From Azolla caroliniana (taxonomy: Eukaryota > Plantae > Polypodiophyta), in assembly GCA_043228905.1 (NCBI GenBank), contig JBHGNT010000011.1, forward strand, positions 6,696,001 to 6,760,000: 64,000 nucleotides of DNA, in the 5' to 3' direction. A program made the translations under genes and the position numbers. Of this stretch, positions 25,319-61,757 are shown piece after piece (the first letter of the stretch is position 1; every line of letters starts with the position of its first letter). The notes beneath the pieces were generated by a model. That model was not told the DNA's origin, ran no database searches, and saw only the letters and a program-made list of their open reading frames with translations.

Positions 25319-25682
25319 GCTCGGAAACCATTCCGAGCAAACCAATTTGCCGACTGGCCATCTAATGACAAAACAAACTCAACTATTTTAGACTTATCCT
25401 CTGCTGTGGCCGATAGTCGCTGAGCTCCTTGGTTTATTTCCCATGTTGTTAAGAAATCCCTAATATGCACTTCTACATCAGCGCCTTCTCGAAATTTTGA
25501 GCTCGGAAACCATTCCGAGCAAACCAATTTGCCGACTGGCCATCTAATGACAAAACAAACTCAACTATTTTAGACTTATCCTCTGCTGTGGCCGATAGTC
25601 GCTGAGCTCCTTGGTTTATTTCCCATGTTGTTAAGAAATCCCTAATATGCACTTCTACATCAGCGCCTTCTCGAAATTTTGA
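25319..25682. repeat. 182-bp near-perfect tandem duplication within gag of G
   Basis: GCTCGGAAACCATTCCGAGC...GAAATTTTGA occurs at 25319 and again at 25501. Confidence 0.9.
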
Positions 25683-26725
25683 GTAAGGCTAAGGCATATT
25701 GTCTTCACTCCAGATATCATAAAATGATACCTCTTCTGATTGATCTCCATCTGACTAACTGTCAGTTAAGTCGGGAAGTGAAGACCACCTCTGACTTGTT
25801 TCTTGTTGTAACACTGCAATACAATCCTCTTCGACACACTTTGTAACCAAACGTGTACGAGGACGTTTACGATCGACTGGTTTATCTGGACCAGACGACA
25901 ACATCCATTCGACTTATTCTCTACTAATTGCAGATGTAACCAGGCATGCCAAAATTATACTATGTTGTTCGGTCGGCACTCAACTCCGTCACCAAAAACC
26001 TAGTATATACGAGAGTTATAGTCCGAATGTTCTATCAAAGAATTGTAGAGTACGAATGGATTAGACTTTGTTAATCATGTACTACGATACGATATTATGT
26101 ATCGTGATCGGTTCTGTTAGTTAGTATAGATATAGCAGAACATCATATAGAGTTATAAAATGTTGACACAAGTGCTCAGAGTTCTACAACTAATAAAACT
26201 ATATTAACTAAAAATAGACAACCTTTTTACAATGCCTTTCAGTTGCTTTTATAGGTAACCATAAAGGCTTTCTCATCAAGAAATACATATTGCCTTACCG
26301 GCAAGAACTACACAACTTATAACTAACTTAATATTCGGTAATTTATTATTTCAGAAAACTACTGGCTCATCGATCCAACCCCGACTCTGATGCTTCTACA
26401 CATGTCCGGGTAACATTTTGGAGGAAGTATCCATTGTACAACTCGTTCGGAACATGGACCGGAATGTCGAAAACCAGGCCCGGTTTCATAGCTAGTCTAG
26501 GGGATGCAAGGAAATTCATCATCGTATAGGAGGGAAAACCCGCGAGTGCACTCAGACGAGATCATGGTAATATGCACCCTGCCTTGCGGACGACCCACTA
26601 TACCCCTCAAGGGTTCGATAGAGGTAGAGGATCCTGGGGAGTGAGCAAAGCATGGAGCATATAGAGCTGCGTGATCCTAGGCGACAATGTCCTAGGAGAT
26701 GATATTGGATTCACCCTGCCCTTCG

Positions 26726-26796
26726 CGCCGTTGACGGGGATCGAAACGGGTTAACCTCGTGACAGGCGGGAATTCTCACCACTATATTACAATGAC
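26726..26796 (-). pseudogene. trnD-GUC: tRNA-Asp(GUC)-derived copy
   Basis: Reverse complement GTCATTGTAATATAGTGGTGAGAATTCCCGCCTGTCACGAGG...TTCGATCCCCGTCAACGGCG matches plant tRNA-Asp with substitutions. Confidence 0.8.
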
Positions 26797-27109
26797 ATCT
26801 AGGTGTTGGAAGTATCCACCATACAACTCGTTTGGACCTTGGACTGGAATATCGAAAACGACGCAAGTTTCATCGTGAGTACACGGGATGCGACGAAATT
26901 CGTACGCGTCTGGGCTAGAATACCCACGAGTGCACTCGGACGAGATCATGGTAATATGTGCCCCGCCTCGCGGACGACCCATTGTACCCCACAAGGGTTC
27001 GAAAGGGGTCGAGGATCAGGGGGAGGGAGCAAAGCATTGAGCATATGGTGGTGAGGGATCCTCGGCGGCAATGCCATAAGAGATGACATCGGATTCGCCC
27101 GGCCCTTCG

Positions 27110-27181
27110 CGTCGTTGCCGAGGATCGAACCCAGGTCACCCGCATGACAGGCATGAATACTCACCATTATATGACAATGAC
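27110..27181 (-). pseudogene. trnD-GUC: tRNA-Asp(GUC)-derived copy
   Basis: 72 nt, anticodon loop CTGTCAT, T-loop GGTTCGATCC, stem mismatches. Confidence 0.8.
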
Positions 27182-27723
27182 ATCCTCGTGATGGAAGAAG
27201 TATCCATTGTACAACTCATGCGGACCATGAACTGGAATGTCGAGAAAGAGGCCCGGTTTCGTCGCCGGTACACGGTATGTGAGGAAATTCATTCGCGTAT
27301 GGGCGGGAATACCCGCGAGTGCACTTGGACGAGATCTTGTTGGAGGAAGTATCCATCGTACAACTCATTCCGAGCATAGACCAGAATGTCGAAAACAAGG
27401 CCCAATTTCATCGCCCATACACACTACTATAATACAACAACATCCATGTGTTGGTAGCTCGAAAACGAGGCCCGATGTCGTCCCTAGTACAAGGGATGCA
27501 ACGAAATTTGTCCTCGTATGGGCAGGAATACCCGCGAGTGCACTCGGACAAGATCATGGTAATTTGCACCCTCCCTCGCGAACAACCCAAGTACCCCACA
27601 TGGTAATTTGCCTTGAGAGGGGTAGAGGATGCTAGGGAGCGAGCAAAGCACTGAATGCATCGCGGTGCGGGATTCTAGGTGGCAATGCCCTAGGAGATGA
27701 CATCTTATTCGCCCCGCCATTCG

Positions 27724-27794
27724 TGCCGTTGTAGGGGATCGAACCGGGTCACCCACGTGACAGGCTGAAATACTCACCACTATAATACAAAGAC
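27724..27794 (-). pseudogene. trnD-GUC: tRNA-Asp(GUC)-derived copy
   Basis: Contains ...GCCTGTCACGTGGGTGACCCGGTTCGATCCCC...; 1-nt deletion. Confidence 0.75.
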
Positions 27795-28120
27795 ATCCAC
27801 ATGTTAGAAGTATCCACCATACAATTCCTTCGGACCATGGACAGGAAGGTCGAAAACGAGGCCCAATGTCGTCTCATGTACAACGGATGCAACGAAATTT
27901 ATCCACGTATGGGCGGGTATTCCCGCGAGTGCACTCAAACGAGATCATGGTAATTTGCGCCCTGCCTCGCAAACAACCCACGTACACCACATGGTAATTT
28001 GCCTTGAGAGGGGTAGAGGATCCTAGGGAGCGAGCAAAGCACTGAGTGCATCACGGTGCGGGATTCTAGGCAGCAATGCCCTAGGAGATGACATCAGATT
28101 CGGCCCAGAATAGCCCTCCG

Positions 28121-28192
28121 CGCCATTGCCGGGGATCGAACTCGGTTCACCCACTTGATAGGCGGGAATCCTCACCACTATACTACAACGAC
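28121..28192 (-). pseudogene. trnD-GUC: tRNA-Asp-derived copy (anticodon mutated GTC to ATC)
   Basis: Reverse complement GTCGTTGTAGTATAGTGGTGAGGATTCCCGCCTATCAAGTGGGTGAACCGAGTTCGATCCCCGGCAATGGCG. Confidence 0.8.
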
Positions 28193-28356
28193 ATCCTGGT
28201 GTTGGAAGTATGTACCGCAACTCATTCGAAGCACGTACCAAAATGTCAAAAACGAGCCCCGGTTTTGTCGCCAGTACACGGGATGCGATGAAATTCGTCC
28301 GCGTATGGGTGGGAATACCCAAGAGTGCACTCGTACGAGATCATCGTAAGATGCGA

Positions 28357-28422: not shown

Positions 28423-30646
28423 ACTCCATGGTGGCTACCTCCACTAACCTTCGCTTTGCGGATGATGGCGGCGGCATGGGGTTGCTATGCTATGGTGCCG
28501 GCAGACCTCGGGCTGGGAATAGTATCGTAAGATATTGTTGTATGATAGGCCTGAGCTTTTTGCCTCCTTGATACACGTGCAGGCCTTCCCGTAACGCCAG
28601 CCCCGTAATGACCCCCCAATCGACCGCGCGCCCTTCAAAGGTATCAATGATGATACATGCCTTGTCCTTGGGCATCCCATATGCGTTTACATGTACGCAT
28701 CCGACCTCCAACAGGAACTTGGCGATTTCACAGAAAAAGGGGTCTAGGATCTCCTTCGTTCTATATGCCTTGGCGGATGATGAATATGGACCGAAATATC
28801 TCTGCAAAGATTCTACAGGAGGGATTTTGAAGTGCCTTTCACCCAGTGATGATAGGTCAAGCTTTTTCCGGACGGATGTGTTGGTGACCCTATCGATATT
28901 GAGCTTCCTAGCGATGTCCAGGGCTTCAGGGTGGGGAGGTGCCTCGGCGACTCAGATGTATCCATCTAAGCGTTTCTCCACGAGCCATCAACGCAAGGCG
29001 CCAAAAATGGGTATCGGCATCGTCGGATTCGGCTCGTGGCTAATGGGTGAGGATTGCTGGCTATGGCGAACTTGGGCTCTGTGATAGGATGGCGAAGAGG
29101 GTGAGGAAGGGGAGCGATGAGAGCGATGAGAGTTAGAAGGTTGGTTTCTATATTGTGTAGAAAACCTTCTATTTCCTTCTTTTTGTGGCCTAGGGTTCAT
29201 TGGTCGGTGAGCCATCGTGGTTCCGCGTGTTCTTGGCCTAGAAGTCTGTGCATGCCTTAAGTCCTTTTAATAACGTCGTTATCTTCTCTCTTTTTTTCTT
29301 TTTCTTTTTTCGTAACGGTTAGATACAACACAATTTTTACATTATAATACAAGTGGGGCCGTCTACTTACTCCGTGGATTCTCCGGCTTTGTCCTATCCG
29401 GCGAGGAATGGGTTAGGTGGGGTAGGTCCAAGATAAGGTTTCAGGCGAAGCCCATTCACTTTTTGGCGTAACACTTCCCCGGCCAATGTGCCAAGTTGAA
29501 ACGTGCCTTGTTCTGCTCCCACTATCCAGTACGGGCCTGTCCAGCGGAATCTTAATTTTCCTGGCATATGCCCCATGCGTGTTTGAAAAACTAATACTGC
29601 TTTCCCAATCGTAAAGTCTTTTTCACGCGTATGCCGGTGTCGGTCCACGAATGCTTTGTGCCACCATTGTTCATGCTCTAATATGGCCATACTGTGTAAC
29701 CTTGTTTCTCCTAGTTCTAGTAGTTGTTGTAGCTGTACTTGTTCGGATTTTCCCTCCGGTAGCCGGGCTCGTACTTGAATCCGTAAACTGGGTACCTGGA
29801 ATTCGACTGGCATCACGACCTCCAGAACAAATGCTAGCCGGAAATGTGTTGAGTGTATGCTAGTCTTATAGCTGGTACGGTATGCCCACAGCGCGCTGTG
29901 GAATTTGGTATCCCAATCCGTTTTGTTCTCATTGACTATCTTTTTGAGGATAGTTTGTAGGGTTTTGTTCGTGGATTCCTCCAAGCCATTTGCCTAAGGG
30001 TAATACGACGTACTTCTTTTGTGAACCACGGCGTAATGTTGGGTCAGTTCGTTGATGACTGTATTGAGGAAGTGACTCCCTTGGTCACTAATGAGCTCGA
30101 TAGGGCAACCGAAACGACACTAGATGTGTTCGTAAAGCAATTTCGCCGTGACTACCCCGGTATTCTCACGTAGTGGTTTCGCTTCTACCCACTTGGTACA
30201 GTAATCTGTGGCCACCAGGATGTACTTATTGCTTGTTCGAGCGGCCGTTGGGGTAAAAGGTCCCACAAAATCTAGCCCCCACTTTTGGAAAGGTTCCAGT
30301 GGCAACACTGGTTGGTGTGGCATCCTTGCGACTTCCGTAGGTTGGCCTAGTCGTTGACATAAATCGCACTGTCTGCAATATTCATACGCATCTTTTTGCG
30401 TCGTCGGCCACCAAAGTCCCGCTTGCCATATTTTCCAGGCCGTAACATCTCCCACGTAATGTCCTCCGGCCATACCACAATGGGCTTCGCGTAGAACCGT
30501 GGCCTTCTCATCTTGCCGTATTCCGCGCCTCCAAATGCCAGCATTGCCTTTGTGGTATAGTATGTCTTCTACTAAACAAAAATGTCGACTCCGTATGGCC
30601 AGCCGTTTTTCCTCGCCCGTCCGTAATTGGGGTGGCGGTAACCCCG

Positions 30647-30846
30647 TATTGTACGTTTTTAGGGTTAGGGTTAATGGCAATGATGATTATCGATGACGAA
30701 GATAGACATGGTGTAATAATGAAGATGATGGAGACTATGATGGTAAGAGAGATCATGAAGATGTTGAGAATCATTGAGAAGCATTGTTGGGTGGGGGGTG
30801 GTGCCTAGAATGGCTCCACCCCCCTTCCAAGGGGGTTCAACGTAAG

Positions 30847-30893
<47 letters not shown>

Positions 30894-33800
30894 GGTTATT
30901 TTTCCATTCATTCATTCCCCATGAGGGGTTAAATAGGTACAAAGGGGTAGATCCACAAGGGTGTAAGCCCCTTGGGCATTCACACCTAGCCACTCACTCA
31001 CACCTCTTTGTATCCACCACACTCACACATACATTCACACTCATAATCGTATAAGATTACACATACATATCAACACATTAAATCTTTCACCCTCACTTAT
31101 CACACTTATCCATCACACGTACGTCTCGTACGGTAACACAATATGGCACGCCCGTGGGAGAGTGCCTTGCACGTCGATCCCACATGCCTTGATCATAATT
31201 TTTCTTCGACCGGAATTTCCATCGATCCTCTCAACGATCGACTCCCTCGATCGGAGCGCTTGACTTGAACATCTCCGCTGGTCAACGACTCTTCTGCGAC
31301 ACGAACATTCTCGTTTTGTGAACTTACGAACTTTGGTATCATCAACGATCGACTCCCTCGATCGGAGCGCTTGACTCGAACATCTCCATCGGTCAGCGAC
31401 TCTTTTGTGACACGAACATTCTCGTTCTGTCGACTTACGAACTTTGGTAACATCAACAATCGACTCCCTCGATCGGAGCGCTTGACTCGAACATCTACGT
31501 CGGTCAGCGAATCTTCATCGACACGAACATTCCCGTTCGGTCGGTTCACGAACTTCGGTAACATGATTTGGGTCGTCAAATTATTTTTTTGTATGTATGT
31601 GTGTTCCTTTTGTTGATTTTGTGAGTTGTGTGTTGATCACGTCCATTTCTTTTAGGTTGATGAGTTTTCAAATTTTCTTAGGAATCATTATTGATTTTGT
31701 GAGTTGATGTGTTGATCACGATGGGAATCGGTTGTTCTTCCCCGCTTTGTGGTCTTGACGGGCTCGATAGGGGGCGCCAATAGGGTGAGCCATTGCACCA
31801 CTGCCGTCCATATCTTCTGACCCTCCTTGCCTCTGACAGAGTCGATGGCTGCACAGAGGCCATCCGCAATCAGTACCGGCCAGTCCACCTTCTCGCCTTC
31901 ATATGTTGCTATGATTAAGCCGGCCCGGTTCTGAGGCGTGCACGGGGGTCGAGGGTATACACGTCCAAATTCATGGAGCACCCAGCTATCCCTCGAAAGA
32001 GTGGATCTTCACCACCCTATGTCCGGTAGGCCTTGTTGGCCAGAGAGTATTCCCCAAAATATTTCCGGAGCTGCTCCAGGGTAGGGTTGTCGATAGTGAA
32101 GATGCCCCCCTTCGGAAGGCCAATCAACACATGGATGGCTTGCTCAATGATCAGCTCCGTGTTGATTTCTTTGACTATCTTCTCCGTCTCCCGGTGTGAC
32201 TATCTTCTCCGTCTCCCGGTGCGGTGGCGCCTCCATGATTGTGAGGAAACCTTCTAACCCGTGTTGCTTCTTCGGAGAGTGCTTGGCAGTCCATGGCTTC
32301 TTCAAGGACGGTGAGTGCTGGTGAGGGTTGTGTGTGAGGAGGCTCTGTGTGCGTGAGCTCGCGTCTGTTGATCTGCAATCGCCTGTCTGCGTTTGTGCTC
32401 CTCTGTTCGCGAAATGTGAAGGTTTCTATGTGGTGGGGGCTTTCTTGTTGCATGTTGGCACCTGTTTTTTTCTTACCTGCGCGTGCGCACATCGTGTACT
32501 AAAATAGAATGTCGTGCCATGTGGCGGCGGTTTAATACTCTATTAATAGCCCACTACGTACCTTTTCAAAGTGCCTGTTCACTCCTTGTTCTTGCATATG
32601 TCCGTTCACTCCTTGCCCTTGCATGATTTACTTTGATTTGATTTGATTTGATTTTTTTTCTTTTTTTTTTAATGAAAATGGTTTGGTTAATTCCCATCCG
32701 GTCCCACTGGACCCCTATCCGGATTGTGGGACTTGCCAGCTGCTGGACTGCTTGCCGTCGCATCGTTCTTGTCGTTTGTCGGCTTGTGCTCCCGCTTACC
32801 GGCTTCGCGTTTGCTGATTGCTAATGGTGTTGCTGTATCTTCCGACTTACCGGTGTCGGCCTTTACTTGTTCAAATGGGTTTCTTGGCATGGGTCCATTG
32901 TATGGTTTGAGTCGGAACCCATTGACCCATTTACCCAAAACCTCGTTGGCGAGTGTCCCTAATTGGTAGGAACCGTTGAACTCATGCGTAATCCAGTATG
33001 GTCCGCTCCACCGAAACCGTAGCTTTCCCGGCATCTTACCCATCCGGGTCTAGAATACTAGTACCGGTTTACCGATTCCGAACATCTTTTCATTCCCTTT
33101 CTAGTGACAATCCACGAACGCCTTCCTTCGCCGCTGCTCTAGTTCTAGGTGCATGATGCTAGCTAGCCGGTGTTCTTCCAATTCGCACATAGCTTCTGAT
33201 TCCTTCTCATTTAGGCGTTCCCGAATCTGTATTCGTAAACTCGGTACCTGGAACTCTACTGGCATCACTGCTTCCAATCCGAATGCTAGGCGAAACGGTG
33301 TTGTGCAAATACTTGTCTTATATGTCGTTCGGTAGGCCCAGAGTGCATTGTGTAGCTTTGTATCCCAATCCGTCCGGTTCTCATTGACGATTTTTCGCAG
33401 GATGTTCTGTAGTGTTTTATATGTTGACTCAGCTAATCCGTTGGCTTGCGGATAATAGGGAGTGCTCCATTTGTGCACCACCGCATAAAATGTCGTCAAA
33501 CTTTCCACTACTTGCCCTAAAAAGTGCCCACCTTGGTCATTTATGAGCTCTATCGGACATCCATACCGGCACCAGATGCATTCATATAAAAATTTTGCCA
33601 TGGATTCCGCGGTGTTGTCGTGTAGTGCTTTAGCTTCCACCCATTTTGTGCAGTAATCCGTAGCGACGATCACGTACCCGTTGACGGTTCTCATTGCCGG
33701 TGGTTTGAATGGACCGACAAAATCCAGCCCCCATTTCTGAAATTGTTCTAAGGGTAGCACGGGCTGGTGAGGCATTCTGACTTGTTCGGTTAGTTTGCCC

Positions 33801-35902
33801 ATTCATTGACATATGTCGCATTCTTTAGCGTACCGGACTACATCCTTCAATGTTGTCGGCCACCATAGTCCATTCTACCATATTTTCCTTGCCATAGCAT
33901 CTCCGGCATAATGGCCTCCAGCCACTCCGCACTGTGCTTCGTGCAATATTATTTCCTTTTCGTCGTTGCGCACTGCACGCTGCCATATGCCATCTTGCCC
34001 TTTGTGGTACAGTGTGTCCTTTAATAGATTGAAGTGTCGTCTTTGAACTGCTAAGCGTTTCCTTTCGTCTCTGTTCATCTCCTCCGGAGGTAAGTCGGTG
34101 CTCCGAAATTGGTGCATGTTGGTGAGCCACTTGTCTTCCTCTGCGACCGTACTATCCGTTGTTGTTTCTGCTGTGACTCTAAATAGCTCTACATCCAGAA
34201 AGTTGTCTGGGACTCTGTCACCGGTTTCGGCGGAATCTAACCAGCTTAAATAGTCTGCTACCGGTTCGGTGGAATATCTCGAACTCGAATTCTTGTAATT
34301 GTAACGTCCACTGAGCCAGCTTACAGGTGAGTGATGCTTTGGACACCAAGTAGAGGAGCGCCAAATGATCTACGTGAAAGGAAGATTTCCTTCCCAATAG
34401 ATAGTATCTAAACTTGGTGACATTGTAGATCATACCCAAGGCCTCCCTTTCCATTGTTGAATAATTACGTTCCGCTTCGGACAGCTTCCGGCTGGCATAA
34501 TACACTGGCCGGTACCATTTCGGTTCTGTCAGTTGCATCAGCGCGCTCCCGATTGCAATGTCGGACGTGTCAACGAACACATGGAAGTCTTTAGACAAAT
34601 CCGGAGGTTGCACCACCGCCACTTGTGACAACAGTACTTTTAGTGCCTGGTAAGCCTGGTCTTCTGTGTCCATCCATCGGAACGGTGTCCAATGCACCGC
34701 GGCATGCAGTGGTGTCGCTAGGTCTGCCAGATACCGGAGCATTCGTCTATGCCACCGAATTTGTCCTAAGAACCGGCTTAGTGCCTTTGCTGTGGCTGGC
34801 GCCAGTGCCTCAAGGATTGCTTTTACTTTGTCTGGATCCACTGCGATACCGTCCTTGCTCACTATGTGGCCCAATCACGCTCCACTGGTTACTTTGAACA
34901 CGCATTTTGCCGGGTTCAGGCTTAGTTGGTAACCCCTACATTTCTCCAAACATAGTTGGAGGTGCTGAAGGCGATCCCCTTCCTGGCTATAAACAGCGAA
35001 GTCATCCAAGAACACCTACATGAATGCCGGAATGAATTCTCCAAAAATCTCCATGATGATCCGCTAGAAGGTTGCTAGCGCCGTTTTCAGTCCGAACATC
35101 ATCACTATGGCAACAAAGACTCCCCATTCAGTGACAAAAGCAGTTTTCTCCTGGTCAGCGGGGTGTTCCAGATCTGATTATAGTCGCTGAAACCATCCAG
35201 AAAACTGGACACCTCATGACCGGCGACCGCATCCAGGACTCCGTCCATGAATGGAAGCGGGAAGGCGTCCGTTACCATAACCGTTCAGAAAGTCTCCTTG
35301 CTCGCTCTGTAACCGGGTCGTTCATTGGTCGCGTCATCCATTCCCGCCAATGTTCGCTGCGATTGTGCAGGAATCGTGATCCCATCGTGGTCGCCAAAAG
35401 GTGTTGTACGTTTTTAGGGTTAGAGTTAATGGCAATGATGATTATCAATGACGAAGATAGATATGGTGTAATAATGAAGATGATGTAGAGTATGATGGTG
35501 AGAGAGATCATGAAGATGTTGAGAATCATTGAGAAGCATTGCGGGGTGGGGGGTGGTGCCTAGAATGGCTCCACCCCCCTCCCAAGGGGGTTCAACGTAA
35601 GTGGAGAGAGAGAGAGAGAGAGAGAGAAATATGTCAAAGAGAGAGAGAGAGAGAAATGATTATTTTTCCATTCATTCATTCCCCATAAGGGTTAAAATAG
35701 GTACAAAGGGGTAGATCCACAAGGGTGTAAGCCCCTTGGGCATTCACACCTAGTCACTCACTCACACCTCTTTGTATCCACCACACTCACACTTACATTC
35801 ACACTCATAATCGTATAAGATTACACATACATATCAACACATTACATCTTTCACCCTCACTTATCACACTTATCCATCACACGTACGTCTCATACGGTAA
35901 CA
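30647..35902 (-). mobile_element. Element J: gag/protease-deleted Ty3/gypsy with RT-RH-INT, accessory ORF and 3' tandem repeats
   Basis: ~495-bp direct repeats at 30647-31138 and 35402-35902, TSD CCCCG/CCCCA. Minus-strand pol fragments at 35280-32687 and accessory ORF ~32170-31688. Confidence 0.88.
31231..31563. repeat. 111-bp tandem repeat (3 copies) in the 3' region of J
   Basis: TCAACGATCGACTCCCTCGATCGGAGCGCTTGACT at 31231, 31342 and 31453 (variant). The minus-strand ORF 31193-31579 repeats every 37 aa. Confidence 0.9.
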
Positions 35903-38351
35903 CCCCATGGTCAGGAAGTAGGTCATTTCCATCAGCCACCGATCCAGAAAAGTCTTTTCCGTTCGTTCTGCTAGAGTTGCTACCCGTAGGATGTTTGCAT
36001 CTGGAAAGTCGTCGTCATCCTTCTGTGCCGTTTCTCCATTATCTAGTCTGCTCAAGAAATCTGCCACTACGTGTTGCGTACCCGAGCGGTGTTGAATTAC
36101 TACAAAATCGAATTCTTGAAGCAGTAGCATCCATCTAGCCAATTTCCCCGTCAGCGCTTGTTTTCCTACCAAATATAGCAGTGCCGAATGATCCACGCGA
36201 AATGCGAATTTCCACCATAATAGATAATGCCGGAACTTATTGATGATGTATATCATACCCAACGCCTCACGTTCCGTTGTGGAATAGTTTCGCTTCGTCG
36301 TTGACAATTTTCGACTAGCGTAGTACACTAGCCGATACCAATTTGGCTCCGTGAGCTGCATTAGCACACTACCTATTGCTATGTCTGAGGCATCTACAAA
36401 CACGTGGAATGGCTTTGCCCAAACTGGTGGTTGTACAACGAGTGCCTGCGTTAGCATTACCTTTAGCGCATCATATGCCTTCTCTTCCATAGCTGTCCAT
36501 TGGAAAGGAGTCCGATGAACAGCGACATGTAATAGTGTGGCGAAGTCCGTCAAATAGCGTATCATCTGACTGTGCCATCGTATTTGTCCCAAAAACCGCC
36601 TGAGTGCTTTCGTGTTTGTCGGTGTTTTCGCGTGAGTAATCGGGGAGATTTTATTCGGATCGACCGCTATCCCTTCCTTACTAACTATGTTGCCGAGGAG
36701 AGCCCCACTAGTAACGTTGAAGGCGCATTTGGCGGGATTCAGACTTAAGCGTGCGATTCAGCAACGCTCCAGGCAAAGTTGTAGATGCGTAAAATGGTCA
36801 GTTGTTGTCCCATATATCGCAAAATCGTCTAAAAAATCTTGCATGAAGGCTGGAATATATTCCCCAAAAATCTCTGTGATTGTCCGTTGAAATGTAGTCC
36901 GTGTTGTCTTTAGCCCGAACATCATGATGACTGCAACATAGACTCCCAAGTCTGTGATAAACGCAGTCTTCTCTTGGTCGTCGGGGTGCATGTGTACTTG
37001 GTTGTACCCACTGAAGCCATCTAAAAAGTTGTACATGTCATGCCCTGCGACAGCGTCCAGTACGCTATCGGTGAACAGTAAAGGGAATGCGTCAATAATG
37101 GTTATGACGTTCAATTTCCGGTAGTCCACGCATACACGTATTTTTCCATTTTTCTTTGGTACGACTACTATCGGGCTTAACCATGTAGCTTATTTAACTG
37201 GTCGTATGAATCCGGCCTTGACGAGTTTGTCAATTTCTTCTTTTACACGGCCCGCGTAGTTTGGGTTCATACGGTATCAACGTTGTTGGACCGGTTTTGC
37301 ATCGGTTGCTAAATTGATCTTATGTTGATAGACCTTCGGATCTAACCCCTTCATGTCCTCATGGGCCCAGGCGAACACATCTTTATATTTCCTGAGTAGT
37401 GCTATCATCGCGTCTCTCTGATCCGATAGTAATTCTCTTGCGATGGAGAGGAATCGGGGTTCCGACGCCGTACCCACATTTACTTCTTCCAAGGCTGAGG
37501 CAATGACTCGTCGTGAAATTTCCATTTCCGTCTCGAACGCTGCCCGTGCTCTGCTTAGTTCTAATATTGACTCCGGGTTTGGTTCGTAAGCCTCGTCGTG
37601 GAGCATAGAGGGCATAGCATACTCCATCGCAGTTTCGATGACAAAGATGGCGCAACCATGTGAAGCCAAAATGGGCAAGCTTCCCATTCTGAAATTCCCA
37701 ATTGTTCGCATGTCTTCGCGCTAATTACATTAACGCCCGAGCTGCCGTCGATTACGCATCTTGGGATTTCTTGACCATGTAGTATCAACTTAATAGCCGG
37801 ATTGTGGTGATCCACCACTATTGGTTGGACGCTAATGTCCGTAAAATTTGTGGCGATGCTTACTCTAGGTCTACCCGTAATCCACTCTTGCACGGCCTAA
37901 CGGAGTCGTGGGACTAGTTGCAGTAGTTTCTCCATGCCTAACGTTTATCTCACAGCCTGTTAGTGCTTGCCATATGGGATCCGGAGATGTTCCCTCTTCC
38001 TCCAATAGTTCCACCGTGTTTGCGGACTCCTTCCGCATGCATTCCATATTTGCCGCGTTTGCTTTTTCAACCCATGTTTGGGGTCTCTGATGTATCTCAT
38101 CTTGCACGACCCAATCAACATTTTTCGTTTGCTGATGTGTCGTGACTTGCTGTACTTCCGTCGTAATCGTATTGACGGCGGGCCCCTTGCCCTTGCATAC
38201 TGGGCATTGTGTAGCATAATGCCCGAGCTGTTGGCAAACAAAACAATGGACGCTAGATTCGGTCCCAGTAGGCGTGCCAAAAGTGTTACCGATTAGGAAC
38301 ACGGTCTACGGTCAGTCCTTCGATCTAGACCTCAAAGCGACTGTGTTTACA

Positions 38352-39729
38352 ATGCCCTAGGTGATTACATCAGATTCGGCCCACCCTTCGCCGCGTTGCC
38401 GAGGATCAAATACGGGTCACTCGCATGATACGCGGGAATCCTGACCACTATATTCCAATGAGATCCTCGTGTTGCATGAAGTATCCCGTGTGACAGGCGG
38501 GAATTTGTCTCTGTTTGGGCAGAAATATCTAGGAGTGCACTTGGACAAGATCATAGTAATATGCGCCCTGGCTCGCAGACGACCCATTGTACCCCACAAG
38601 GGTTCGAAAGGGATAGTTGATACGGGGGAGCGAGCAAAGCATTGACCATATGGCGGTGCGGGAAGCCGGGTAACTAGCGTGACAAGCGGGAAAACTCATC
38701 ACTATACTACAACAACAACCTAGTGTTGGAGGAAGTATCCTCTATACTACTAGTTTGGAATATGCACCGGAAATGTCGAAAAAAGGCTTGGGTTTGTCGC
38801 CAATACATGTTATGGGACGAAGTTCGTTAGTGTATGAATGGGAATACCTGTGACTGCACTCCGACGAGATCATGGTAATATATACTACAACGACATCCTA
38901 ATGTTGGAGGAAGTATCCTCCGTACTACTCATTTAGAACATGGACTAGAATGCTGAAAATGAGGTCTGGTTTCATCACCAATACACGTTATGCGACGATG
39001 TTCGTCAGCATTTGAACGGGAATACCTGTAAGTGCACTCGTACGAGATCATGGTAATATGGGCCCTGCCTCGCGGACGACCCACTGTACCCCCCCAAGGT
39101 TTCAAAAGGGGTAGAGAATTAGGAGGAGGTAGCAAAGCATTGAGCATATGACGGTGCGGGTTCCTCGTCGGCAATGTCGTGGGAGATGACATCAGATTCC
39201 CCCCACCGTTCGCGGGGATTCAACCTGGCACTATACTACAAAGACATCCTCGCGTTGGAAGAGTATCCACCGTACAACTTGTTGAGAGCATAGACCGTAA
39301 TGTAAAAAACGAGGCCCGGTTTCATTGCTAGTACAAGTGATGCAACGTAATTCGTCCACGTTTGGGTAGGAATATCCAGTTGTGCACTCTAAGTATATCA
39401 TGGTAATATGTGCCCTACCTCACAAAAGACCCATTGTACCCCACAAGGGTTCGAAAGGGGTAGATGATCAAGGGGAGCGAGCAAAGCATTGAGCATACGA
39501 TAGTGCGGGACACTCAGAAATAATGCCCTAGGAAATGACATCAAATTTGCCCTGCCCTTCGCCCCATTGCGGAGCATCAAACCCGGAATATTGACCACTA
39601 TATTTCAACGACATCCACGTGTTGGAGGAAGTATCATGCGTACTACATGTTCGGAATATGGATCGGAATGTCAAAAACGAGGCCCGGTTTTGTCGCGAAT
39701 ACACGTTATGCGAAAAGGTTCGTCACCGT
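38352..39729 (-). repeat. tRNA-Asp tandem array, segment 2 (one near-full copy ~38391-38462 plus internally deleted copies)
   Basis: Same unit motifs as segment 1; partial tRNA copies at ~38665-38718, ~39208-39245 and ~39561-39612. Confidence 0.85.
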
Positions 39730-51302: not shown

Positions 51303-54300
51303 CTGTCCAGCGCCGAAAGTCGTGCGAAGCGTTCCTCAAACTCCTAGAGGAGCACCGACACATTCCTCCCCTTTCCCTGGAGTCTCTACCCAATCCATAA
51401 AATCCCGCTTCGATAACCAAAGCGTGTCATCAAAGCCAGACCGCTCAAGGAGCTGCGCTTCAAATTCTCCCCAGGTTTGGCATCCAGCCTGCACCTCGAG
51501 CACCTCTACGCGAATGCCCGATATCGCTACCCGAGGGAACCCAGCCAGACGCGTTTCTTCCGGGATGTCCCTCATCACCGTCTCGGCCCGGTAGGCCACC
51601 AAATAACTTGTGGCATCCTTCCCATCAAACTGGCCTATTGTGCCGACGATTGCTTCGATGGCCTTGTCGAGGGCGCCCGTGCCCTCGTGAGCACTTACTA
51701 TCCGATCCACTGCTGCCACCATGACTTCGGTGAGCTCTGATTCCCTCATTTTTTATTCCTCTGCCGTCTTAATTCAAACATGTATCGATGTTTACGATTT
51801 CCCCGTTCCGTAAAGAATATAGTTTTGTAGTTAGGTGCAACATGTGTACTATAATGTGTGAAGCGCGAGCCTCCACATTTGTCCCATGTCATGATACATT
51901 GGCGTTGCAAAAAGGTCTCATTTACAGAGGAATCTAATGATGCATCATGAAGCAAGTGTCTCGTATCCCATCTACCAAACCATTTTTCTATATCTTGCAT
52001 CCAACCGGAACACAAAATTTTGCTTTTATGTGTCTTTTAGATCTTTTTGCTTGCTTCCCACGCAATTCTAGGAAGTCGATATGAGGGACTTTTTTGAAAC
52101 TTAAGCATGTATTCAACAACCCTTTCCATGGCCATGATCTCAATGGGAATCGATCCCGTCTCGTGGAGGAGGAGGGTGTAGGGCGTTTGTTTCTTAACTT
52201 GTAGAAACTTGGTAAGAAAATGTTTTTGGACATTTTCAAACTCTTTCCACATAGATTTAGGGATGCTACCGCCCCATACTTCCACCCCATAGAGAAGAAC
52301 CGGTGTCACCAAAGTGTTGAAAAGATATTTCTTGAGGACCCAACACTTAATATCTCCAAGATTGCATGTGTTCTCAAATGCATAGTATGCTCGCTTAACC
52401 ACCTCTAAGCGGCGTGTAGCACAATCATTCCATCTATGATTTGAAGGAACTTCAAGGCCAAGATATTTGAAGCTTTCCACACATTCAAGTGACTCATTGT
52501 TATACATAATGCATGGTTTATCTCTTTTTTTTCTCTTCACAAGCATAATCTTTGTTTTAGAGCTATTGACACTTAATTTAGTATGCATGCAAAACATTTC
52601 CAATACCAAGCTTTTGTGCATCTCCTAAAGTATTTGCAAAAAGCGCTACATCATTTGCATATAGCAAAAGCATAATCACAACATTCCCAATGGCAACTTC
52701 TTCAACACATTCTTCCTTTGCAAACTTGGTAACCATTTCTTCCAATTCATCAATGCATAGACCAAATAGTGTTGGTGAGAGTGGGCATCCTTGCTTAACA
52801 CCAATAGTGCTTTTGAAAAAATCTAAAAGTTTATCTCTCATGCGCACACAACATATAACCTTCTCATAAATTCGAGAAATTACAAGCATATATTCACTTG
52901 GCACCTCAAGTTCTTCCATTCGCCTCCAAAGATGCTCACGAGGTACCATATCAAAAGCTTTCTTGAAGTCTACAAAGCAACAATATAAACCTTTACCTCT
53001 AAGGCGACTTTCCTCTATTAATACTCGAAAGGTGATAAGGTGATCAATGGTGCTATGGTGTTTCTGAAAGCCAGCTTGTCCATAAGCTCTCTTACCACTT
53101 TTTTCAGCCCATACACTTATCTTTGATTCCATTATACATCCAAATAGTTTTGCCATTAATGAGCCAACCATGATGGTTCGATAGTTGTTTACATTATTTA
53201 TATCTCCACCTTTATGTAAAGTTTTGATCCAATTTGTAGTCCAATCGTACAGTATACCATGTTGTAATGCATCATTAAACATATCGCTTATCCATATATG
53301 TGCTTCCTTTCCTGTCCATTTGAGCATTTCAGCCTTTATACATTGAAGATCGCTTGCCTTTCGAGAGGCCAATTTCTTAAATCCTATGCATATATCTTCA
53401 ATTGTAAAGAAGGGAGGCATATGTGAAAGAGAACCATAACACATCATCTTTCCGGCAAGAGATAACTCATATAAATTCTTACAATGCATAGACAAGTCGT
53501 GAAGAGTTAAGTCACCATAACTCTCAACACATTTCCCCTTTAGATTTCCCCAAAATTTAGCACATGCATGTGCTTTCTCTTGCGTTTGGACAAATTGTTG
53601 AGTAACTTCCCATATTCTTCTCTTTCTTTAAATAAGCCTTTTATACTCATGCAAATGCTTTTGGTAATTCTCTTTATCCTTAACTACATCCAAAACCATA
53701 AGGCACTTTCGAGCTTCACGACATTCTTTATCAAACCATTTTTTCCTAAGTTTCTTGGTGCATTTCCAAGATGTGCGGTTGGTCGAAAAACATTTTTTGT
53801 ACAGGAGAGAATGACTTTCTTGAAAGCTTCCCATTTGCATTCTAGTGTGGCACCATGTTGTATCTTTTTCATTTGTAACATATTGTCATGATAACAGTCA
53901 CATCATGCATCGAAAGGATCATGACACTCACATTATGACTCGAAAGGATTTGAACCCACGACCTTGTTGTACACATGTCAAATCCTTAACCATTGTATTA
54001 ATATTCTTATATGTATAGTCTCTAGAATATGAAATCTAATATCATAGGAATATTCTATATTACTCTACATTCTAGAATGACCTAGAATATTCTAGAGTGT
54101 TCTATACCACTAGAACCTTCTAGAATACTCTAGAGATCTTCTAGATTACTCTACATTCTAGGATAACCTAGAATATTCTAGAGAGTTCTCTATTACTTAT
54201 AAATAGGGATCTACCACCCATCCCAAACCTAAATTGGTTCAACGCCATTTTGTAGCCTACTCTTTGTAATCCATTTTACGCTTCAATATAATAATTCTCT

Positions 54301-54442
54301 TTCAATTATCTCTCTATCTCTTTTTCTCTCTCTTTCTCTCTCTCAGTCTTGACAGTTTGAACCAATTTTTTTCCTTTCATCTCTTCGTCTTCCACAAACC
54401 CTAACAAGTTCTCTTCTTCCTTCTCCTCTCCCCTCATAAGCT

Positions 54443-55567
54443 ATGGAGTCCGTGAGCAAACAAGAATACATGCGTGTTCTTTCTGAGCTCGACATGCTCA
54501 CGAATAAATTTGTGGCATTAGAGCACGAGAATCAGAGGCTACTTGGAGATCTACAACACGTGAGCGCCGAAAAAGCTCAACAATATGAAGAGTTATCACA
54601 GCGGGTTCATCAACTTGAGGCGACTATATTGTCATTACGAGAGCAAGCGTCCGGGGCTCAGAACTCCCCTAGAGAGCCAAAGATCAGCCTCCCTGCCAAG
54701 TTTGATGGTACGAGGTCTTTATTTTGAGGCTTTTTGAATCAAGTTCGTTTAGTTATTCAGCTACATCCCAATCGGTATCCAACTGATGCTGCTCGTGTGG
54801 GATTAGTGGGAACTTTGCTATGCGGTACGGCGTTAGCATGGTTCGCACCACTTCTCGAGAAGAAATCACCATTGCTGGAGGATTTCGAGGCCTTTGTTAA
54901 AGAGTTTCAAGCTAGTTTCGGAGACACCGACAGCACTAGGACAGCGATAAACAAGATTCGAAGGCTCCGACAAGGAGATCGTCCCGCGTCGTCTTATGCA
55001 GCCGATTTCCGTCTCTTGGCATGCGATATCCCTTGGGATGAGGCAGCTTTAATGGATCAATTCCGTCAAGGTTTGAGAAATGATGTCAAAGATCTTCTTC
55101 TTACTTTCCCTGAAGATCCGAAGTCACTTACAGAAGCCATTAGTCGAGCTGTGCGATGTGATAATCGCCTATTTGAGCAACGTTCTGAGCGCCAACAAAC
55201 GTTACGCTGCCAACCTGAACAGACTTACGCTTCCGTAGTCGCAACGCCTCCACAAGTTTCTAGACCCATTACAAGGGATGGCCCAACTTCGATGGAAATA
55301 GAGTCAACACAACGTCGTGGGCCGTTATCAGATGCTGAGAAGCAACGACGTCGAGCGCATCGCCTCTGCCTGTATTGTGGTGGTCCAGGACATATAGCTG
55401 TAAATTGTCCACATAAACCTAGGCGTCAAGTATACCAAGTAAGTGCCCATGAAAACCCTACCTCGAGTTCTATTGTTACTTCTAATAACATAAATAAGCC
55501 TCATAGTCCATGTCATGAGAACAGATTCGATGTCTTGAGTCAATTAGAGGATGTGTTAAACGAGTAA
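54443..55567 (+). pseudogene. gag of D (coiled coil, capsid, CCHC knuckle) with one in-frame TGA at 54725
   Basis: PAKFDG...F*GFLNQ, LRQG, CLYCGGPGHIAVNC. ORFs 54443 and 54734 are in the same frame. Confidence 0.9.
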
Positions 55568-55606
55568 GTCCGGCCAAAATAGGAGCCATTTGGCTGGACC
55601 ATCCTA
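55555..55606 (+). promoter_or_regulatory. Predicted -1 ribosomal frameshift signal (G TTA AAC plus H-type pseudoknot)
   Basis: pol is in the -1 frame and open from the slip site. Stem 55568-55578/55589-55599; second stem TAGGA/TCCTA. Confidence 0.75.
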
Positions 55607-58600
55607 GCTATGTAGAGTTAGTTCCTAGTCGTGGTTCCATTTCATCAAATGAAGTGAGTCGAGTTTTTTCAGCACAAGTCGAGCTTACCACATCTACATG
55701 TCATCGAGTCCTAGCCTCTGCCCTTCTAGATTCTGGAGCCAACTCTTGTTTCATGGATCGTGAATTTGCCTTGTCACAAAACATCCTCTTGAATAAGCTT
55801 CCCAACCCAGTAGCCGTAGGAGTCATCGATGGACGTCCCATAGCATCAGGAGATATAGTCGAGGAGTCCGAGCCAATTAGGATAGTTCTTGGCAATTTGG
55901 CAAGCATAATCTCTTTCAATATTATTCGTAGTCCGGACCACCCAATAGTTCTAGGTCTCCCCTGGTTTGAACTCCATAACCCGAAGATTGATTGGATGAA
56001 AAGAACAATTGAGGAGACTCGGGAAAAAAGCACAAATCCCGCATCCCTCTCTCCTACATGTGCTAATAGATCCCCGGAGTTATCGCCCATCTCTTTACGA
56101 CAGTTGCGGGAGGAAGGGGGGAACGAGGCCATGTTCGTCTTCGCGATAGTAGCAACTCCATCATCCACTTCACGTGACGCGGATATTAAACTACCAGAGA
56201 AATACAAGGAGTTTTCAGATGTCTTTGATAAGGTGAAGGCCAATACATTGCCGGAGCATCGGCCATACGACTGCCCTATTGACTTACAACCAGGGAAAGA
56301 ACCTCCATGGGGCCCAATTTATAATCTCTCCCCTGTAGAGCTAGAGACTTTGCGGGAATATATTGATGAGAATCTGGCAAACGGATTCATTCGGCATTCT
56401 AGATCCCCTGCTGGTGCACCTATCTTCTTCGTTAAGAAGAAGAATGGGACTCTTCGGTTGGTCGTGGATTATCGAGGGCTAAACAAAGTGACTATCCGAA
56501 ATAGACATGCTCTACCATTAATCCCGAATCTTTTGGAACGTCTCAGTGGTGCAAAATATTTCACGAAGTCGGACCTTCGCGGAGCATATAATCTAGTTCG
56601 GATTCGCCCGGGGGATGAATGGAAGACAGCTTTCCGCACTCGCTGTGGACATTTTGAGTATACAGTGATGCCATTTGGTCTCACGAATGCACCTGCTGTT
56701 TTCCAACATATGGCGAACGATATTTTTCGAGATTTTCTTGATATCTTCACTATAGTTTACCTAGATGATATTTTAATCTACTCAAAGACCCAAGAGGAGC
56801 ATGATGCACATGTTCGTCAAGTACTGTGCCGACTCCGAGAATATGGTCTCTACGCAAAATTAGAAAAGTGTAGTTTCGGCCAGAATCAAGTGGAATTTTT
56901 GGGGTATGTTGTATCGTCAAATGGTATTGCTATGGACCCCATGAAGGTACAGGCAATTTTAGAGTGGCAAACGCCCCTTTCAATGCGTGATGTGCAATGT
57001 TTTCTCGGGTTTGCAAATTTTTATCGAAAATTTATTAAAGATTATTCCAAGGTTGTGCTTCTGCTTACTCAGCTCACACATAAAGATCAACCATTTATAT
57101 GGAGTTCAGATGCATCCGAGGCATTCGAAAGCTTAAAACGAGCATTTACAACGGCACCTATCTTAGCACATGTCGACCCAACAAAACGCTTCATCCTCGA
57201 AGCCGATGCATCCGATTTTGCACTAGGGAGTGTCCTCTCGCAGACTAGAGATGATGGACAACTACACCCTGTCGCCTTTCATTCACGAAAGTTTGAAGCT
57301 GCAGAGATCAACTACGAGATCCATGACAAAGAGCTTCTTGCAATCGTGGATTCGTTTCAACAATGGCGACATTTCCTAGAAGGTTCTTCTCAACAGATCA
57401 TTGTCTACAATGATCATAAGAACCTGACTTATTTCCAAAATGCTCGAGTCTTGAGTCAGCGACAAGCCCGGTGGGCGCAATTTTTGACTCACTTCGACTT
57501 TATCATCATATATCGCCCTGGGATGCAGCAAGGCAAAGCAGATGCTCTTTCTCGGCGCTCTTATATGGAACTTCGTCCAGGGGAACCTGCTTTTGAGCAT
57601 CAAAAACAAATCCTTTTGGGTCCTAATCGATTACGATTAATGGTAGTTAACGCCATAACAGCTCTTGAAAATTCCACTCTTCTTGATTCCATTCGCCAAG
57701 GATGTTTTGGATCATATCGTCCCGGATCGTGCTTCTTGCTCACAGTCGAAAAATCCTCGTAATGACTATTGTCAGTTCTATTGGCATGATGGTTTTCTAT
57801 TTCGACAAAATTTATTGTATGTTCCTGATGGTCCCCCACGGCTACAAGTTTTGCAACATTGCCATGACTCACCAATGGCTGGTCATTTTGGAGTTCACAA
57901 GACTCTAGAATTAATTTCTCGACGCTATTGGTGGCCTCGCCTTCGTCATTTTGTTGAGGAGTATGTTTGGAGTTGTGATATATGTTGTCGATCAAAGAAT
58001 CCTCGTCACCGACCCTATGACTTACTACAACCACTTCCCATTCCGGAAACACCTTGGAAGTCTATATCCTTGGACTTCATTACTGATCTCCCAGTTTCAA
58101 AAGGTTTTGATGCAATTCTCACAGTTGTTGATCGATTTACCAAAATGGCACATTTCTTGCCATGTACAAAGTCGATTACTAGTCAAGAGACGGCTGATCT
58201 CGTTATGCGGGAGGTATTTAAGCATCATGGTCTGCCAGATGATATTATTAGTGATCGTGGTCCACAATTCATCTCAAAGTTTTGGAAGCACCTGTTCAAA
58301 CTTCTCCACATTTCAATTAAGCTTTCTTCGGGCTATCATCCTGAAACAAATGGCCAAACAGAGCGTACCAACCAGACATTGGAACAATATCTTCGTTGTT
58401 TCATCAACTATCAACAAGATGATTGGGTTGCATTTTTGCACTTGGCGGAATTCGCTTACAACAACTCAGCCCATTCTTCTACAGGATATTCCCCATTTTT
58501 CGCAAATACGGGCTGTCATCCTCGATGGACGATGAATGCGCATCCAGAAGTTCCTACCAACCCTGCTGCCGAGGATCGTCTTAGTCGCCTCCAAGAAATT

Positions 58601-59179
58601 CAAGCTAACATTCTCCACAATTTGCATGATGCTCAATTTACACACAAGAGGCTTGCCGATCGTCATCGTCTAGACTCCTCAAAAAAGTTCCACATTGGGG
58701 ATCATGTATGGCTTCTCCAACACAACATCAAGACCACTCGACCTTGCAGTAAATTGGATTACCAACGTTTTGGCCCTTACATGATCACTGGTAAGATAAG
58801 TGATGTTGCATTTCGTCTTGACCTCCCTCCGCACATGCATCTTCATCCGGTGTTTCATGTATCCCTTTTGGAACCTTATACTACAAGTTCAATTCCGGGC
58901 CGTCTTACAACACCCCCACCACCTGTCGAGTTCTTGGACGGGCCTGAATTTGAAGTTGCTGCCGTTCTCGATTCTAAAATCGTGCGCAACAAGTTGTATT
59001 ACTTGGTCGATTGGCTAGGCTATACCCCCAATGATCGAACTTGGGAACCTGCCACAAATCTTTCCAATGTTGCAGAACTCGTCAATGCATTTCATCGCCA
59101 ATATCCTTGTAAACCAGGTCCTAATACAAACCCTACGACCCGTGAGACGTGTCGTCGAAGAAGGGGGATAGTGTCATGA
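55555..59179 (+). pseudogene. pol of D (protease LDSGA, RT YLDD, RNase H, integrase, chromodomain); one frameshift near 57690
   Basis: ORFs 55654-57762 and 57665-59179; chromodomain EFEVAAVLDSK...YLVDWLGY...TWEP. Confidence 0.92.
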
Positions 59180-60731
59180 TAACAGTCACATCATGCATCG
59201 AAAGGATCATGACACTCACATTATGACTCGAAAGGATTTGAACCCACGACCTTGTTGTACACATGTCAAATCCTTAACCATTGTATTAATATTCTTATAT
59301 GTATAGTCTCTAGAATATGAAATCTAATATCATAGGAATATTCTATATTACTCTACATTCTAGAATGACCTAGAATATTCTAGAGTGTTCTATACCACTA
59401 GAACCTTCTAGAATACTCTAGAGATCTTCTAGATTACTCTACATTCTAGGATAACCTAGAATATTCTAGAGAGTTCTCTATTACTTATAAATAGGGATCT
59501 ACCACCCATCCCAAACCTAAATTGGTTCAACGCCATTTTGTAGCCTACTCTTTGTAATCCATTTTACGCTTCAATATAATAATTCTCTTTCAATTATCTC
59601 TCTATCTCTTTTTCTCTCTCTTTCTCTCTCTCAGTCTTGACACATATCCTCAACCATCTTGGAATACATGGGTGCTCGCTTAAGGTTCATGCTCAAGTGC
59701 GGTTGTTTATTATCTTTAATAGCCTTCTCACAATCAAACCTATGCATACATTTGAGATCAATACATAACGGCCTATGATCGGATTCCGGTGTCCATTTAC
59801 CAAGTGAGAATTTATGTATACGATCCAAAATACCTTCAGAAAGTATCACATAGTCAATCACACCATTTCCGTTGTGTTTTCTACATGTAAAACCATTCGT
59901 GTTGGGCCATAAGGAAATACCATTTGCAATAAGCAATCCGGTACTATTGCACATATGTAGGAGTAACTTCCCAAATTGGTCCGGATCTTTTTCATCGCTA
60001 GAAGAGCGGCTATACATTTGCATATCCTTTTGCATCCTTGAGATATGTGGCATGAAAGATTCTTGTGAATCAAGTTGGAAACTTCTTGTACGAGCATTCA
60101 TGTCACAAAAGACAATAACTTCCCCTTTGGATTTGAAATAAGCAATATCATCTTCTAGATTGGCAAATGGTTGATCTTTATCCAAACAAGCATAAAAGTT
60201 AGAATCTTCTAGAGAGAGAGGGAAAGAGAGAGACTCGTAGAAACACAGAGAGACAAAAATGAAAGATTCGAATCCAATAACAATGTAGATTACAACTTGC
60301 AAAGTTACAACAGGCAAGCCAGTGATAAACTAGACACAAACGAACGCACGCCCTGAAATACGTGGTGGAGCCTCTACCGGAAGCACGCAGCAGAAGCAGC
60401 CAACCTAACCCAAATCCCTACAGAAGCGATAACGGTGGTGGAGGAGAGAGCTCGGCTCCTAGTACAACACTTCGTCCTCTCAGAATGCGATGCCTACTCA
60501 AGTCCCTTCCCTCTCCCTTTATAGCTCCAGGAGAGAGACGTTTACAGACCGTTAAATTCCTGTTATTCTCCCCGATGCCCTACTTAAAGAACTAGTGCTA
60601 CCTAGGATAGTTACATCTCCGGCCTATACTTAACTATGTCTATAAATCTATCAAAACATGTGCCCGTGTGTAAGGGCCTGTTCACGCATATCATCCACTG
60701 ATTCCTCCTAGGGACGATTTCCTCCACGACA

Positions 60732-61757
60732 ACGAGATCATGGTAATATATACTACAATGAAATCTTAGTGTTGGAGGAAGTTTCCTCTGTACTCCTCAT
60801 TCGCAACATGGACTGGAATGTCGAAAACGAGGCCCGCTTTTGTCGCCAATACACGTTATGCGACGAAGTTCGTTAGCGTATAAACGGGAATACTTGTGTA
60901 CTCGGATGAGATCATGGTAATATATACTATACTAACAACATCCTAGTGTTGGAGGAAGTATCCTCCGTACTACTCGTTCGCAACATGGACCGGAATGTCG
61001 AAAACGAGGCTCGGTTTTGTCGCCAATACACGTTATGCGACGAACTTTGTCAACGTATCAACGGGAATACCCGTGAGTGCACTCGAACGAGATGATGGTA
61101 ATATGGGCCCTGCCTCACGCACAACCGACATTATCCCCCAAGGTTTCGAAATGGGTAGAGAATCAAGAGGATAGAGCAAAGCAATGAGCATACGACGATC
61201 TGGGATCTTCAGCGGCAATGCCGTAGGAGATGACATCAGATTTGCCCCGCCTTTCGTGCCATTGCCGGGGATCGAACTCGGGTGACCCGCGTGACAGGTG
61301 AGAATACTCACCACTGTGCTCGAACGACATCCTGATGTTAGAAGAAGTGTCGATCATACAACTCGTTCGGAGCATGGACCGGAATGTTGAAAACGAGGCC
61401 TGCTGTCATTGTGAGTACAGGGGATACAACGTAATTCATCTGCGTATGGGTGGGAATATCCAGGAGTACACTCAGACGAGATTATGCTAATATGCACCCT
61501 GCCTCACGGATGAGCCACTGTACCCCACAAGGGTTCGAAAGGGGTAGAGGATCCCGGGGAGCGAGCAAAGCATTGAGCATATGGCGGTGCGGGAAGCCGG
61601 GTCATCGGCGTGACAAGTGGGAAAATTCACCACTATACTACAATGACATCCTTGTGTTTGATGAAGTATCCTCCGTACTACTCGTTCGGACGAGGGACCA
61701 GAATGTCGAAAATGCGGCGTGGTTTCATCGCCAATACACGGCCTGGTTTCATCGCCA
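60732..61757 (-). repeat. tRNA-Asp tandem array, segment 3
   Basis: Same unit motifs, including sub-unit duplications at 60732-61100. Confidence 0.85.
61257..61328 (-). pseudogene. trnD-GUC: tRNA-Asp(GUC)-derived copy
   Basis: Reverse complement GTCGTTCGAGCACAGTGGTGAGTATTCTCACCTGTCACGCGGGTCACCCGAGTTCGATCCCCGGCAATGGCA. Confidence 0.8.

Follow-up and report, generated by a model that had tools for sequence, protein, structure and literature searches.

How does a long terminal repeat (LTR) retrotransposon start its plus DNA strand when the polypurine tract (PPT) that should prime it is missing? The question is raised by element J, a Ty3/Gypsy insertion at positions 30647-35902 of a 64,000-nucleotide (nt) stretch of the Azolla caroliniana genome (contig JBHGNT010000011.1, positions 6,696,001 to 6,760,000; hereafter the window, to which all coordinates refer). 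All retroviruses are stated to contain a PPT (PMC12789967). Five nt inside the 3′ LTR of J, where such a tract belongs, the initial annotation of this locus had noticed an inverted tRNA-type primer-binding site (PBS) and no PPT, and both observations were confirmed, coordinates included. Moreover, the feature is not confined to J: throughout the lineage, an extended, inverted tRNA-Arg site stands in place of the PPT, and this is real, not a one-off. Comparison of the related sequences suggests that the lineage has probably dropped the RNase H-resistant PPT and that host tRNAs would prime both strands, the second through a three-part site with a looped-out hairpin.

Read on the sense strand of the element, the core of the site (Table 1) is a tRNA end terminating in CCA. 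When compared, in standard tRNA numbering, against the tRNA-Arg(UCU) genes of loci L121 and L130, the site turned out to be longer than the 16 nt recognized initially: these are present, but the full site spans ~40 nt and reaches position 31183. From one end to the other, it consists of the complement of tRNA nt 76-67, that of nt 65-60, a single variable base, a hairpin and the complement of nt 58-49. The longest purine run at this junction is 3 nt, and purines make up 53% of the last 15 nt, against 67-80% in six other LTR elements of the window. By a rough estimate, a 16-mer of this kind would turn up by chance at that place (2-8 nt inside an LTR) with a probability of 1e-7. In a search of Rfam the site matched no family.

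Metagenomes were scanned with a pattern consisting of the 16-nt core plus 3 further bases; all site counts given here are among the matches listed. A single series of metagenome assemblies supplied most of the loci, and many contigs are collapsed or tandem repeats. At least 123 sites in at least 120 loci were recovered, 121 sites in 118 loci being of the J kind. The sites of L003 and L071, where every other feature is missing, were discarded as chance matches. The trinucleotide ACA, typical of LTR ends, lies 2-8 nt upstream of 110 of the 116 sites with enough flanking sequence (background, 13%), and a stricter LTR terminus adjoins 99 of 111 (background, 2.9%). Depending on the threshold, the 94 LTR ends of comparable length form 20, 29 or 46 clusters, and many different LTR ends adjoin the site in sequencing runs as well. 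In runs carrying three organism labels, the summed depth at the site is ~3.5-21 times that over the J LTR, depth not being equivalent to copy number. An ordinary PPT in the relatives would have pointed to a one-off inversion or chimera in J; none of those recovered has one, the purine run at the junction being at most 4 nt in all 111 relatives, beside the same site.

The spacer between site and LTR measures 2 nt in 75 of 114 cases, 4 nt in 12, 5 nt in 19 and 8 nt in one, and is unresolved in 7. Two nt is the usual overhang at a priming site. The expectation that relatives would keep both sites together with their 5-nt spacing was thus borne out for the 3′ site, without a PPT, but not for the spacing: 5-nt spacers at both junctions occur in only 3 of the 17 LTRs with both sites, and, the 2-nt spacer being the commonest, equal 5-nt spacers were rejected as a feature of the lineage. 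No complete element bearing a target-site duplication (TSD) was found among the metagenome loci. That J is itself a mosaic of two families (see below) might favour reading it as a one-off product or its site as a chance match. However, both parent families bear the site, and the metagenome sites, the junction analysis and the runs under three organism labels refute this reading, to which we assign practically no probability.

Since the search pattern fixed 19 bases, only bases outside it can count as evidence for selection. Of 116 sites, 95 contain the motif CCCAC, which lies outside the pattern, and 105 retain the hairpin with its four base pairs intact. Compensatory changes in the hairpin replaced G-C by A-T in 12 sites (probably a single event) and C-G by T-A in one; the two changes of the commoner pair have equal depth in four of four sequencing runs. 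Calculated with RNA parameters and a bacterial tRNA as stand-in for that of the host, pairing with tRNA nt 49-58 has a mean energy of -15.5 kcal/mol, versus -8.2 +/- 2.1 kcal/mol in shuffled sequences, and with this extension the whole duplex reaches a mean of -48.5 kcal/mol, compared with -32.5 kcal/mol without it.

The match of the 3′ site to a tRNA 3′ end, another initial claim, holds for tRNA-Arg. All 15 tRNAs called with this end are Arg, namely that of L121 and those of 14 out of 34 genome loci (13 with anticodon TCG and one with TCT; the other 20 loci gave no call). Furthermore, four runs (X1, X2, X4 and X13) aligned to L130:94-127 contain an LTR-flanked copy of a mature tRNA that has the same 3′ 30 nt, CCA included, and continues to a UCU anticodon. 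This copy is indirect evidence for host tRNA-Arg(UCU) as a candidate partner. These runs reveal another repeated family, in which an LTR-type end and a 4-nt spacer are followed by an uninterrupted tRNA-Arg(UCU) complement of ~60 nt running through the anticodon and D arms; this family may preserve the ancestral state. The hairpin may likewise be derived from a tRNA, because its 5′ arm (31161-31168) complements, by eye, the D-stem/anticodon-stem junction of the LTR-flanked copy. The 8-mer of this arm is found in 62 of 116 sites.

The position of the site at the 3′ end can be judged from coding matches. Among the 67 sites with more than 400 nt of inner sequence, 14 have such matches, of which 11 run towards the site and 3 away from it, and in L031 a PBS, gag and the site lie within one unit. 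Three short units without a coding match keep the site, as expected of a cis-acting signal. The pol of L043 was rejected as evidence for orientation, as it groups with window elements of another lineage. L034 contains a head-to-head pair of related LTRs, both of which have the tRNA site and the hairpin. Because many contigs are collapsed or tandem repeats, the pairing of a PBS with a 3′ site is known per LTR family, not per insertion.

At the opposite end of J, the normal PBS that had been described does lie 5 nt inside the 5′ LTR, but its 17-nt length was rejected: relatives share only the first 10 nt (family core TGGCGACCAC), and the next 11 nt in J are an insertion. A 10-nt tRNA PBS adjoins the 5′ LTR in J and in 17 related LTRs. 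These 17, out of 73 LTRs examined for a PBS at the other end, include 10 of the J type and 7 whose 10-mer is identical to that of the 3′ site, so that the same tRNA 10-mer stands at both ends (LTRs of L007, L015, L022, L024, L032, L040 and L077). Judging from these two types, the 5′ primer has switched within the lineage; the different tRNA type of the 5′ PBS in 10 of 17 LTRs also implies that the 3′ site is not merely a partner of the PBS. A search of viral_contigs yielded no tRNA matching the 5′ PBS of J, for which the initial Arg(UCG) label is putative.

That relatives have the same site and no PPT, together with the match to tRNA-Arg, makes plus-strand priming by a second tRNA, as proposed initially, the best reading, and we hold it to be somewhat likelier true than false. 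The genomic RNA reads like a tRNA at the site, so that a tRNA can pair there only with minus-strand DNA or with antisense RNA. On our reading of the sequences, host tRNA-Arg(UCU) or its 3′ fragment probably binds the minus-strand cDNA and would serve as primer for the plus strand. Minus-strand synthesis would be primed by a tRNA at the 10-nt 5′ PBS; after strand transfer, RNase H would remove the RNA and expose the site in DNA. The tRNA would then pair by three segments (nt 76-67, 65-60 and 58-49), nt 66 forming a bulge and the hairpin a loop outside the duplex, and the CCA end of the tRNA would be extended by reverse transcriptase (RT) across the 2-8 nt spacer into the unique 3′ region (U3) of the LTR. 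Finally, the spacer would be trimmed by integrase, as at the PBS end. The CCA of the site ends where the plus strand must start, and the lack of nt 66 and the hairpin would be inherited because the template of the site is genomic RNA and not the primer.

Several points weigh against this proposal. Above all, RNase H accepts a tRNA:DNA hybrid as substrate, and the RNase H of J keeps its acidic residues; that the interruptions of the pairing limit its attack on the hybrid is speculative. The site in cDNA is able to fold on itself (mean -6.4 kcal/mol), and the duplex energies were obtained with a borrowed tRNA and parameters for RNA. Coding sequence runs away from the site in L035, L051 and L070, which is explained in part only by the nature of the matches (a remote match of 34% located at 4.1 kb, a fragment of 35 residues at the end of a contig and a piece of the extra open reading frame (ORF) beyond the family homology). 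The fixed pattern of the scan makes relatives with a PPT or with a site for another tRNA invisible to it, and the predominance of one assembly series and of collapsed repeats narrows the sample. Among the 41 differences listed (26 more lie beyond these), none falls in the core, under an 80% filter that favours copies that are alike.

Alternatively, the RNA of the element could itself provide the primer, with the tRNA-like stretch escaping RNase H as an atypical, structured PPT and being cut after the CCA. No second tRNA is required in this case, the site lies exactly at the PPT position with a spacer of mostly 2 nt, and the sense RNA folds into a stem topped by the small hairpin that compensatory change has kept. 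Nevertheless, we regard such an origin of the primer as unlikely: the fold beats shuffled sequences by a modest margin only (z score of -1.85 for 57 nt and -0.54 for 91 nt), no more than 21 of 72 folds leave CCA unpaired, and families differ in structure. The retention of tRNA letters across 20-46 LTR clusters is more simply explained by pairing with a fixed host molecule, and the T-loop, which enzymes acting on tRNA recognize, is disrupted by the hairpin.

If the site were a PBS on antisense transcripts, plus-sense LTR DNA could join the minus strand, or the family could be copied from transcripts of either orientation, as also suggested initially; an RNA:RNA duplex escapes RNase H, and 7 of 17 LTRs have the identical 10-mer at both ends. 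The sites are nevertheless unequal (10 versus ~40 nt), the TATA-like and cytosine-thymine (CT) signals of the J LTR were found on the sense strand only, and even a full copy of an antisense RNA would be without a PPT at the other end. Copying from either orientation is thus not favoured, and the antisense PBS as a whole appears improbable to us. The site might, on the other hand, have no part in priming and act as a signal for packaging or circularisation or as a small-RNA decoy, the plus strand beginning elsewhere. Ends with the identical 10-mer could pair together, and a second tRNA site near the 3′ end of Drosophila Gypsy is dispensable for cDNA synthesis (PMC1635307). A role of this kind is in our opinion very improbable, however, given the lack of a PPT at 111 of 111 junctions, the distance of only 2-8 nt between CCA and LTR, and the inability of J-type ends (10 of 17 LTRs) to pair beyond 4 nt, for which reason pairing between PBS and 3′ site was rejected as a general mechanism.

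In the literature searched, the scope of which excluded most subscription papers and the per-element table of PMC6317226, we found no description of a tRNA site replacing a PPT, and motif searches in papers and in the Neumann supplements returned nothing relevant. J shares with the canonical systems of yeast Ty3 (PMC5371799) and retroviruses (PMC12789967) its LTRs, TSD, PBS beside the 5′ LTR, RT-RNase H-integrase order and a priming signal a few bases before U3; in the J lineage, however, this signal is an inverted tRNA complement and is not purine-rich. The closest systems described have a second or bipartite PBS, to which tRNA pairs on the RNA and beside which a PPT is present. Those of Ty3, Ty1 and Drosophila Gypsy (PMC5371799, PMC1635307) likewise involve pairing with the acceptor stem and T arm and a tRNA-related site near the 3′ end. 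According to these sources, they pair with tRNA on genomic RNA and the PPT is kept, whereas in the J lineage the genomic RNA reads like tRNA, which leaves minus DNA or antisense RNA as the only possible partners, and there is no PPT. Helenus elements, terminal-repeat retrotransposons in miniature, also contain tRNA-derived sequence (PMC10886601); there it lies inside the LTR, probably as an RNA polymerase III promoter; the elements have a PPT, and no role in priming was found by the author.

J itself is a broken, mosaic and non-autonomous Ty3/Gypsy insertion that has been replicated and integrated, having been copied in trans (Table 1). Its direct-repeat LTRs, as initially described, are 96% alike (473 matches and 19 substitutions over 492 aligned bases; Kimura two-parameter distance, 0.040) and have TG...CA-type ends, the left LTR beginning with TA. 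The described TSD was also recovered; the flanks can be read as 5 bp that differ at one position or as 4 bp and an additional base. Host element H, which is older, has an integrase frame that breaks at one flank of J and continues at the other. Domain matches (RT, RNase H, integrase, in the Ty3/Gypsy order) and LTR signals confirm the assignment of pol, TATA and CT tract to the minus strand, on which the integrase and RNase H domains, the TATA-like octamer and the 40-nt CT tract lie. Relative to L046, ~3.2 kb of gag, protease and early RT are gone, and the frames are broken. The LTR and the first ~540 inner bases (31139-31727) match the short elements L044, L050, L066 and L095, while 31727-35380 matches L011, L043 and L046, whose LTR differs.

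Table 1. Features of element J, with its flanks, and the tRNA-like site of host element H (window coordinates)
Feature	Position	Strand	Remarks
Left TSD	30642-30646		CCCCG
3′ LTR	30647-31138	-	492 nt; TATA-like octamer near 30929-30936 and CT tract, both minus strand
Spacer between 3′ site and LTR	31139-31143	-	5 nt (2 nt in most relatives)
Core of inverted tRNA-Arg site	31144-31159	+	complements tRNA nt 76-67 and 65-60; nt 66 unmatched
Hairpin	31162-31172		4 bp; inserted between complements of tRNA nt 59 and 58
Complement of T-loop and 5′ T-stem (nt 58-49)	31174-31183	+	9 of 10 matching in J
Tandem units in 3′ non-coding region	31231-31564		three units of ~111 nt
Extra 3′ ORF remnant	31688-32008	-	common to site-bearing relatives
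Integrase region	32687-34369	-	stops and frameshifts; rve in 33101-33802
RNase H domain	34218-34874	-	three acidic positions checked (D, E, D) present
RT remnant	34875-35276	-	broken; start deleted
Leader and first gag codons	35281-35375	-	stop at the ~3.2-kb deletion relative to L046
Insertion	35376-35386	-	11 nt; not in L011 or L046; makes the PBS of J appear 17 nt long
5′ PBS, family core	35387-35396	-	10 nt
5′ LTR	35402-35902	-	501 nt; 5-nt spacer 35397-35401 on inner side
Right TSD	35903-35907		CCCCA
tRNA-Arg-like site of H	38263-38279	-	4 nt from LTR-type end; no hairpin

Element H (28490-38350) belongs to the same integrase clade as J (68% identity) and is truncated, its left end and almost the whole right LTR being missing. 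The resemblance noted between the 3′ site of J and the PBS of H is real insofar as H does have a tRNA-Arg-like site; the hairpin is absent from it. This site adjoins the gag zinc knuckle and shows weak similarity to the gag coding sequence before the knuckle. Given that a similar LTR-type end with the same spacer occurs in the runs aligned to L130, it is more likely a real LTR junction than gag coding sequence only. Around the nest of elements lie satellite-like repeats (26400-28350, 38350-39720, 60730-61740 and 63460-64000), their units measuring ~178 and 390 nt, and an ARAGORN tRNA call at 28120-28192 sits in one of them. An exact tandem duplication of 183 nt (25319-25683) is either very recent or an assembly artefact. 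A young element at 53880-59642 has LTRs 99.8% identical and a clear PPT; an inverted, 94% identical copy of its LTR lies at 5223-5676.

Where does the J lineage belong? Its closest proteins are environmental sequences (71-90% identity), followed by those of fern, liverwort and pine. In a quick integrase tree (75 rows, database matches only), J and H fall in a clade with fern sequences, apart from Tat proteins bearing the archaeal RNase H (aRH). Neither aRH (P0003, P0006) nor a chromodomain was found in full-length relatives, and viral_contigs contained no relative of the J integrase. As in Athila, Tat, Phygy and Selgy, no chromodomain was found, the PBS is non-Met and there is an extra 3′ ORF; a PBS spacer of 3-6 bp is a further likeness to Athila (PMC6317226; 10.64898/2026.03.20.713144). 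Conversely, the J lineage differs from Tat in lacking aRH (PMC6317226) and from Athila in lacking the conserved PPT junction reported there, and its PBS tRNA is putatively Arg (the 3′ site being of the Arg type), as against Asp/Asn in Athila, Trp in Phygy and Ala in Selgy (PMC6317226; 10.64898/2026.03.20.713144). The TSD of Phygy and Selgy is 4 bp, that of J either 4 bp plus one base or 5 bp with a mismatch. The J lineage is an as yet unplaced, non-chromovirus branch of Ty3/Gypsy.

A PPT is generally regarded as common to retroviruses and LTR retrotransposons; a lineage of many families that does without one implies that plus-strand priming is open to rewiring, and prompts the question of how RNase H is evaded by an RNA primer bound to DNA. 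The two main explanations predict different primers: a tRNA would contain nt 66 and lack the hairpin, whereas the RNA of the element would lack nt 66 and contain the hairpin. Annotation tools that score PPTs would miss or mis-orient elements of the J type. If priming by a second tRNA is true, it would constitute a new way of starting the plus strand in LTR elements; and if these elements depend on tRNA ends twice, both of their priming steps would be exposed to control by tRNA fragments.

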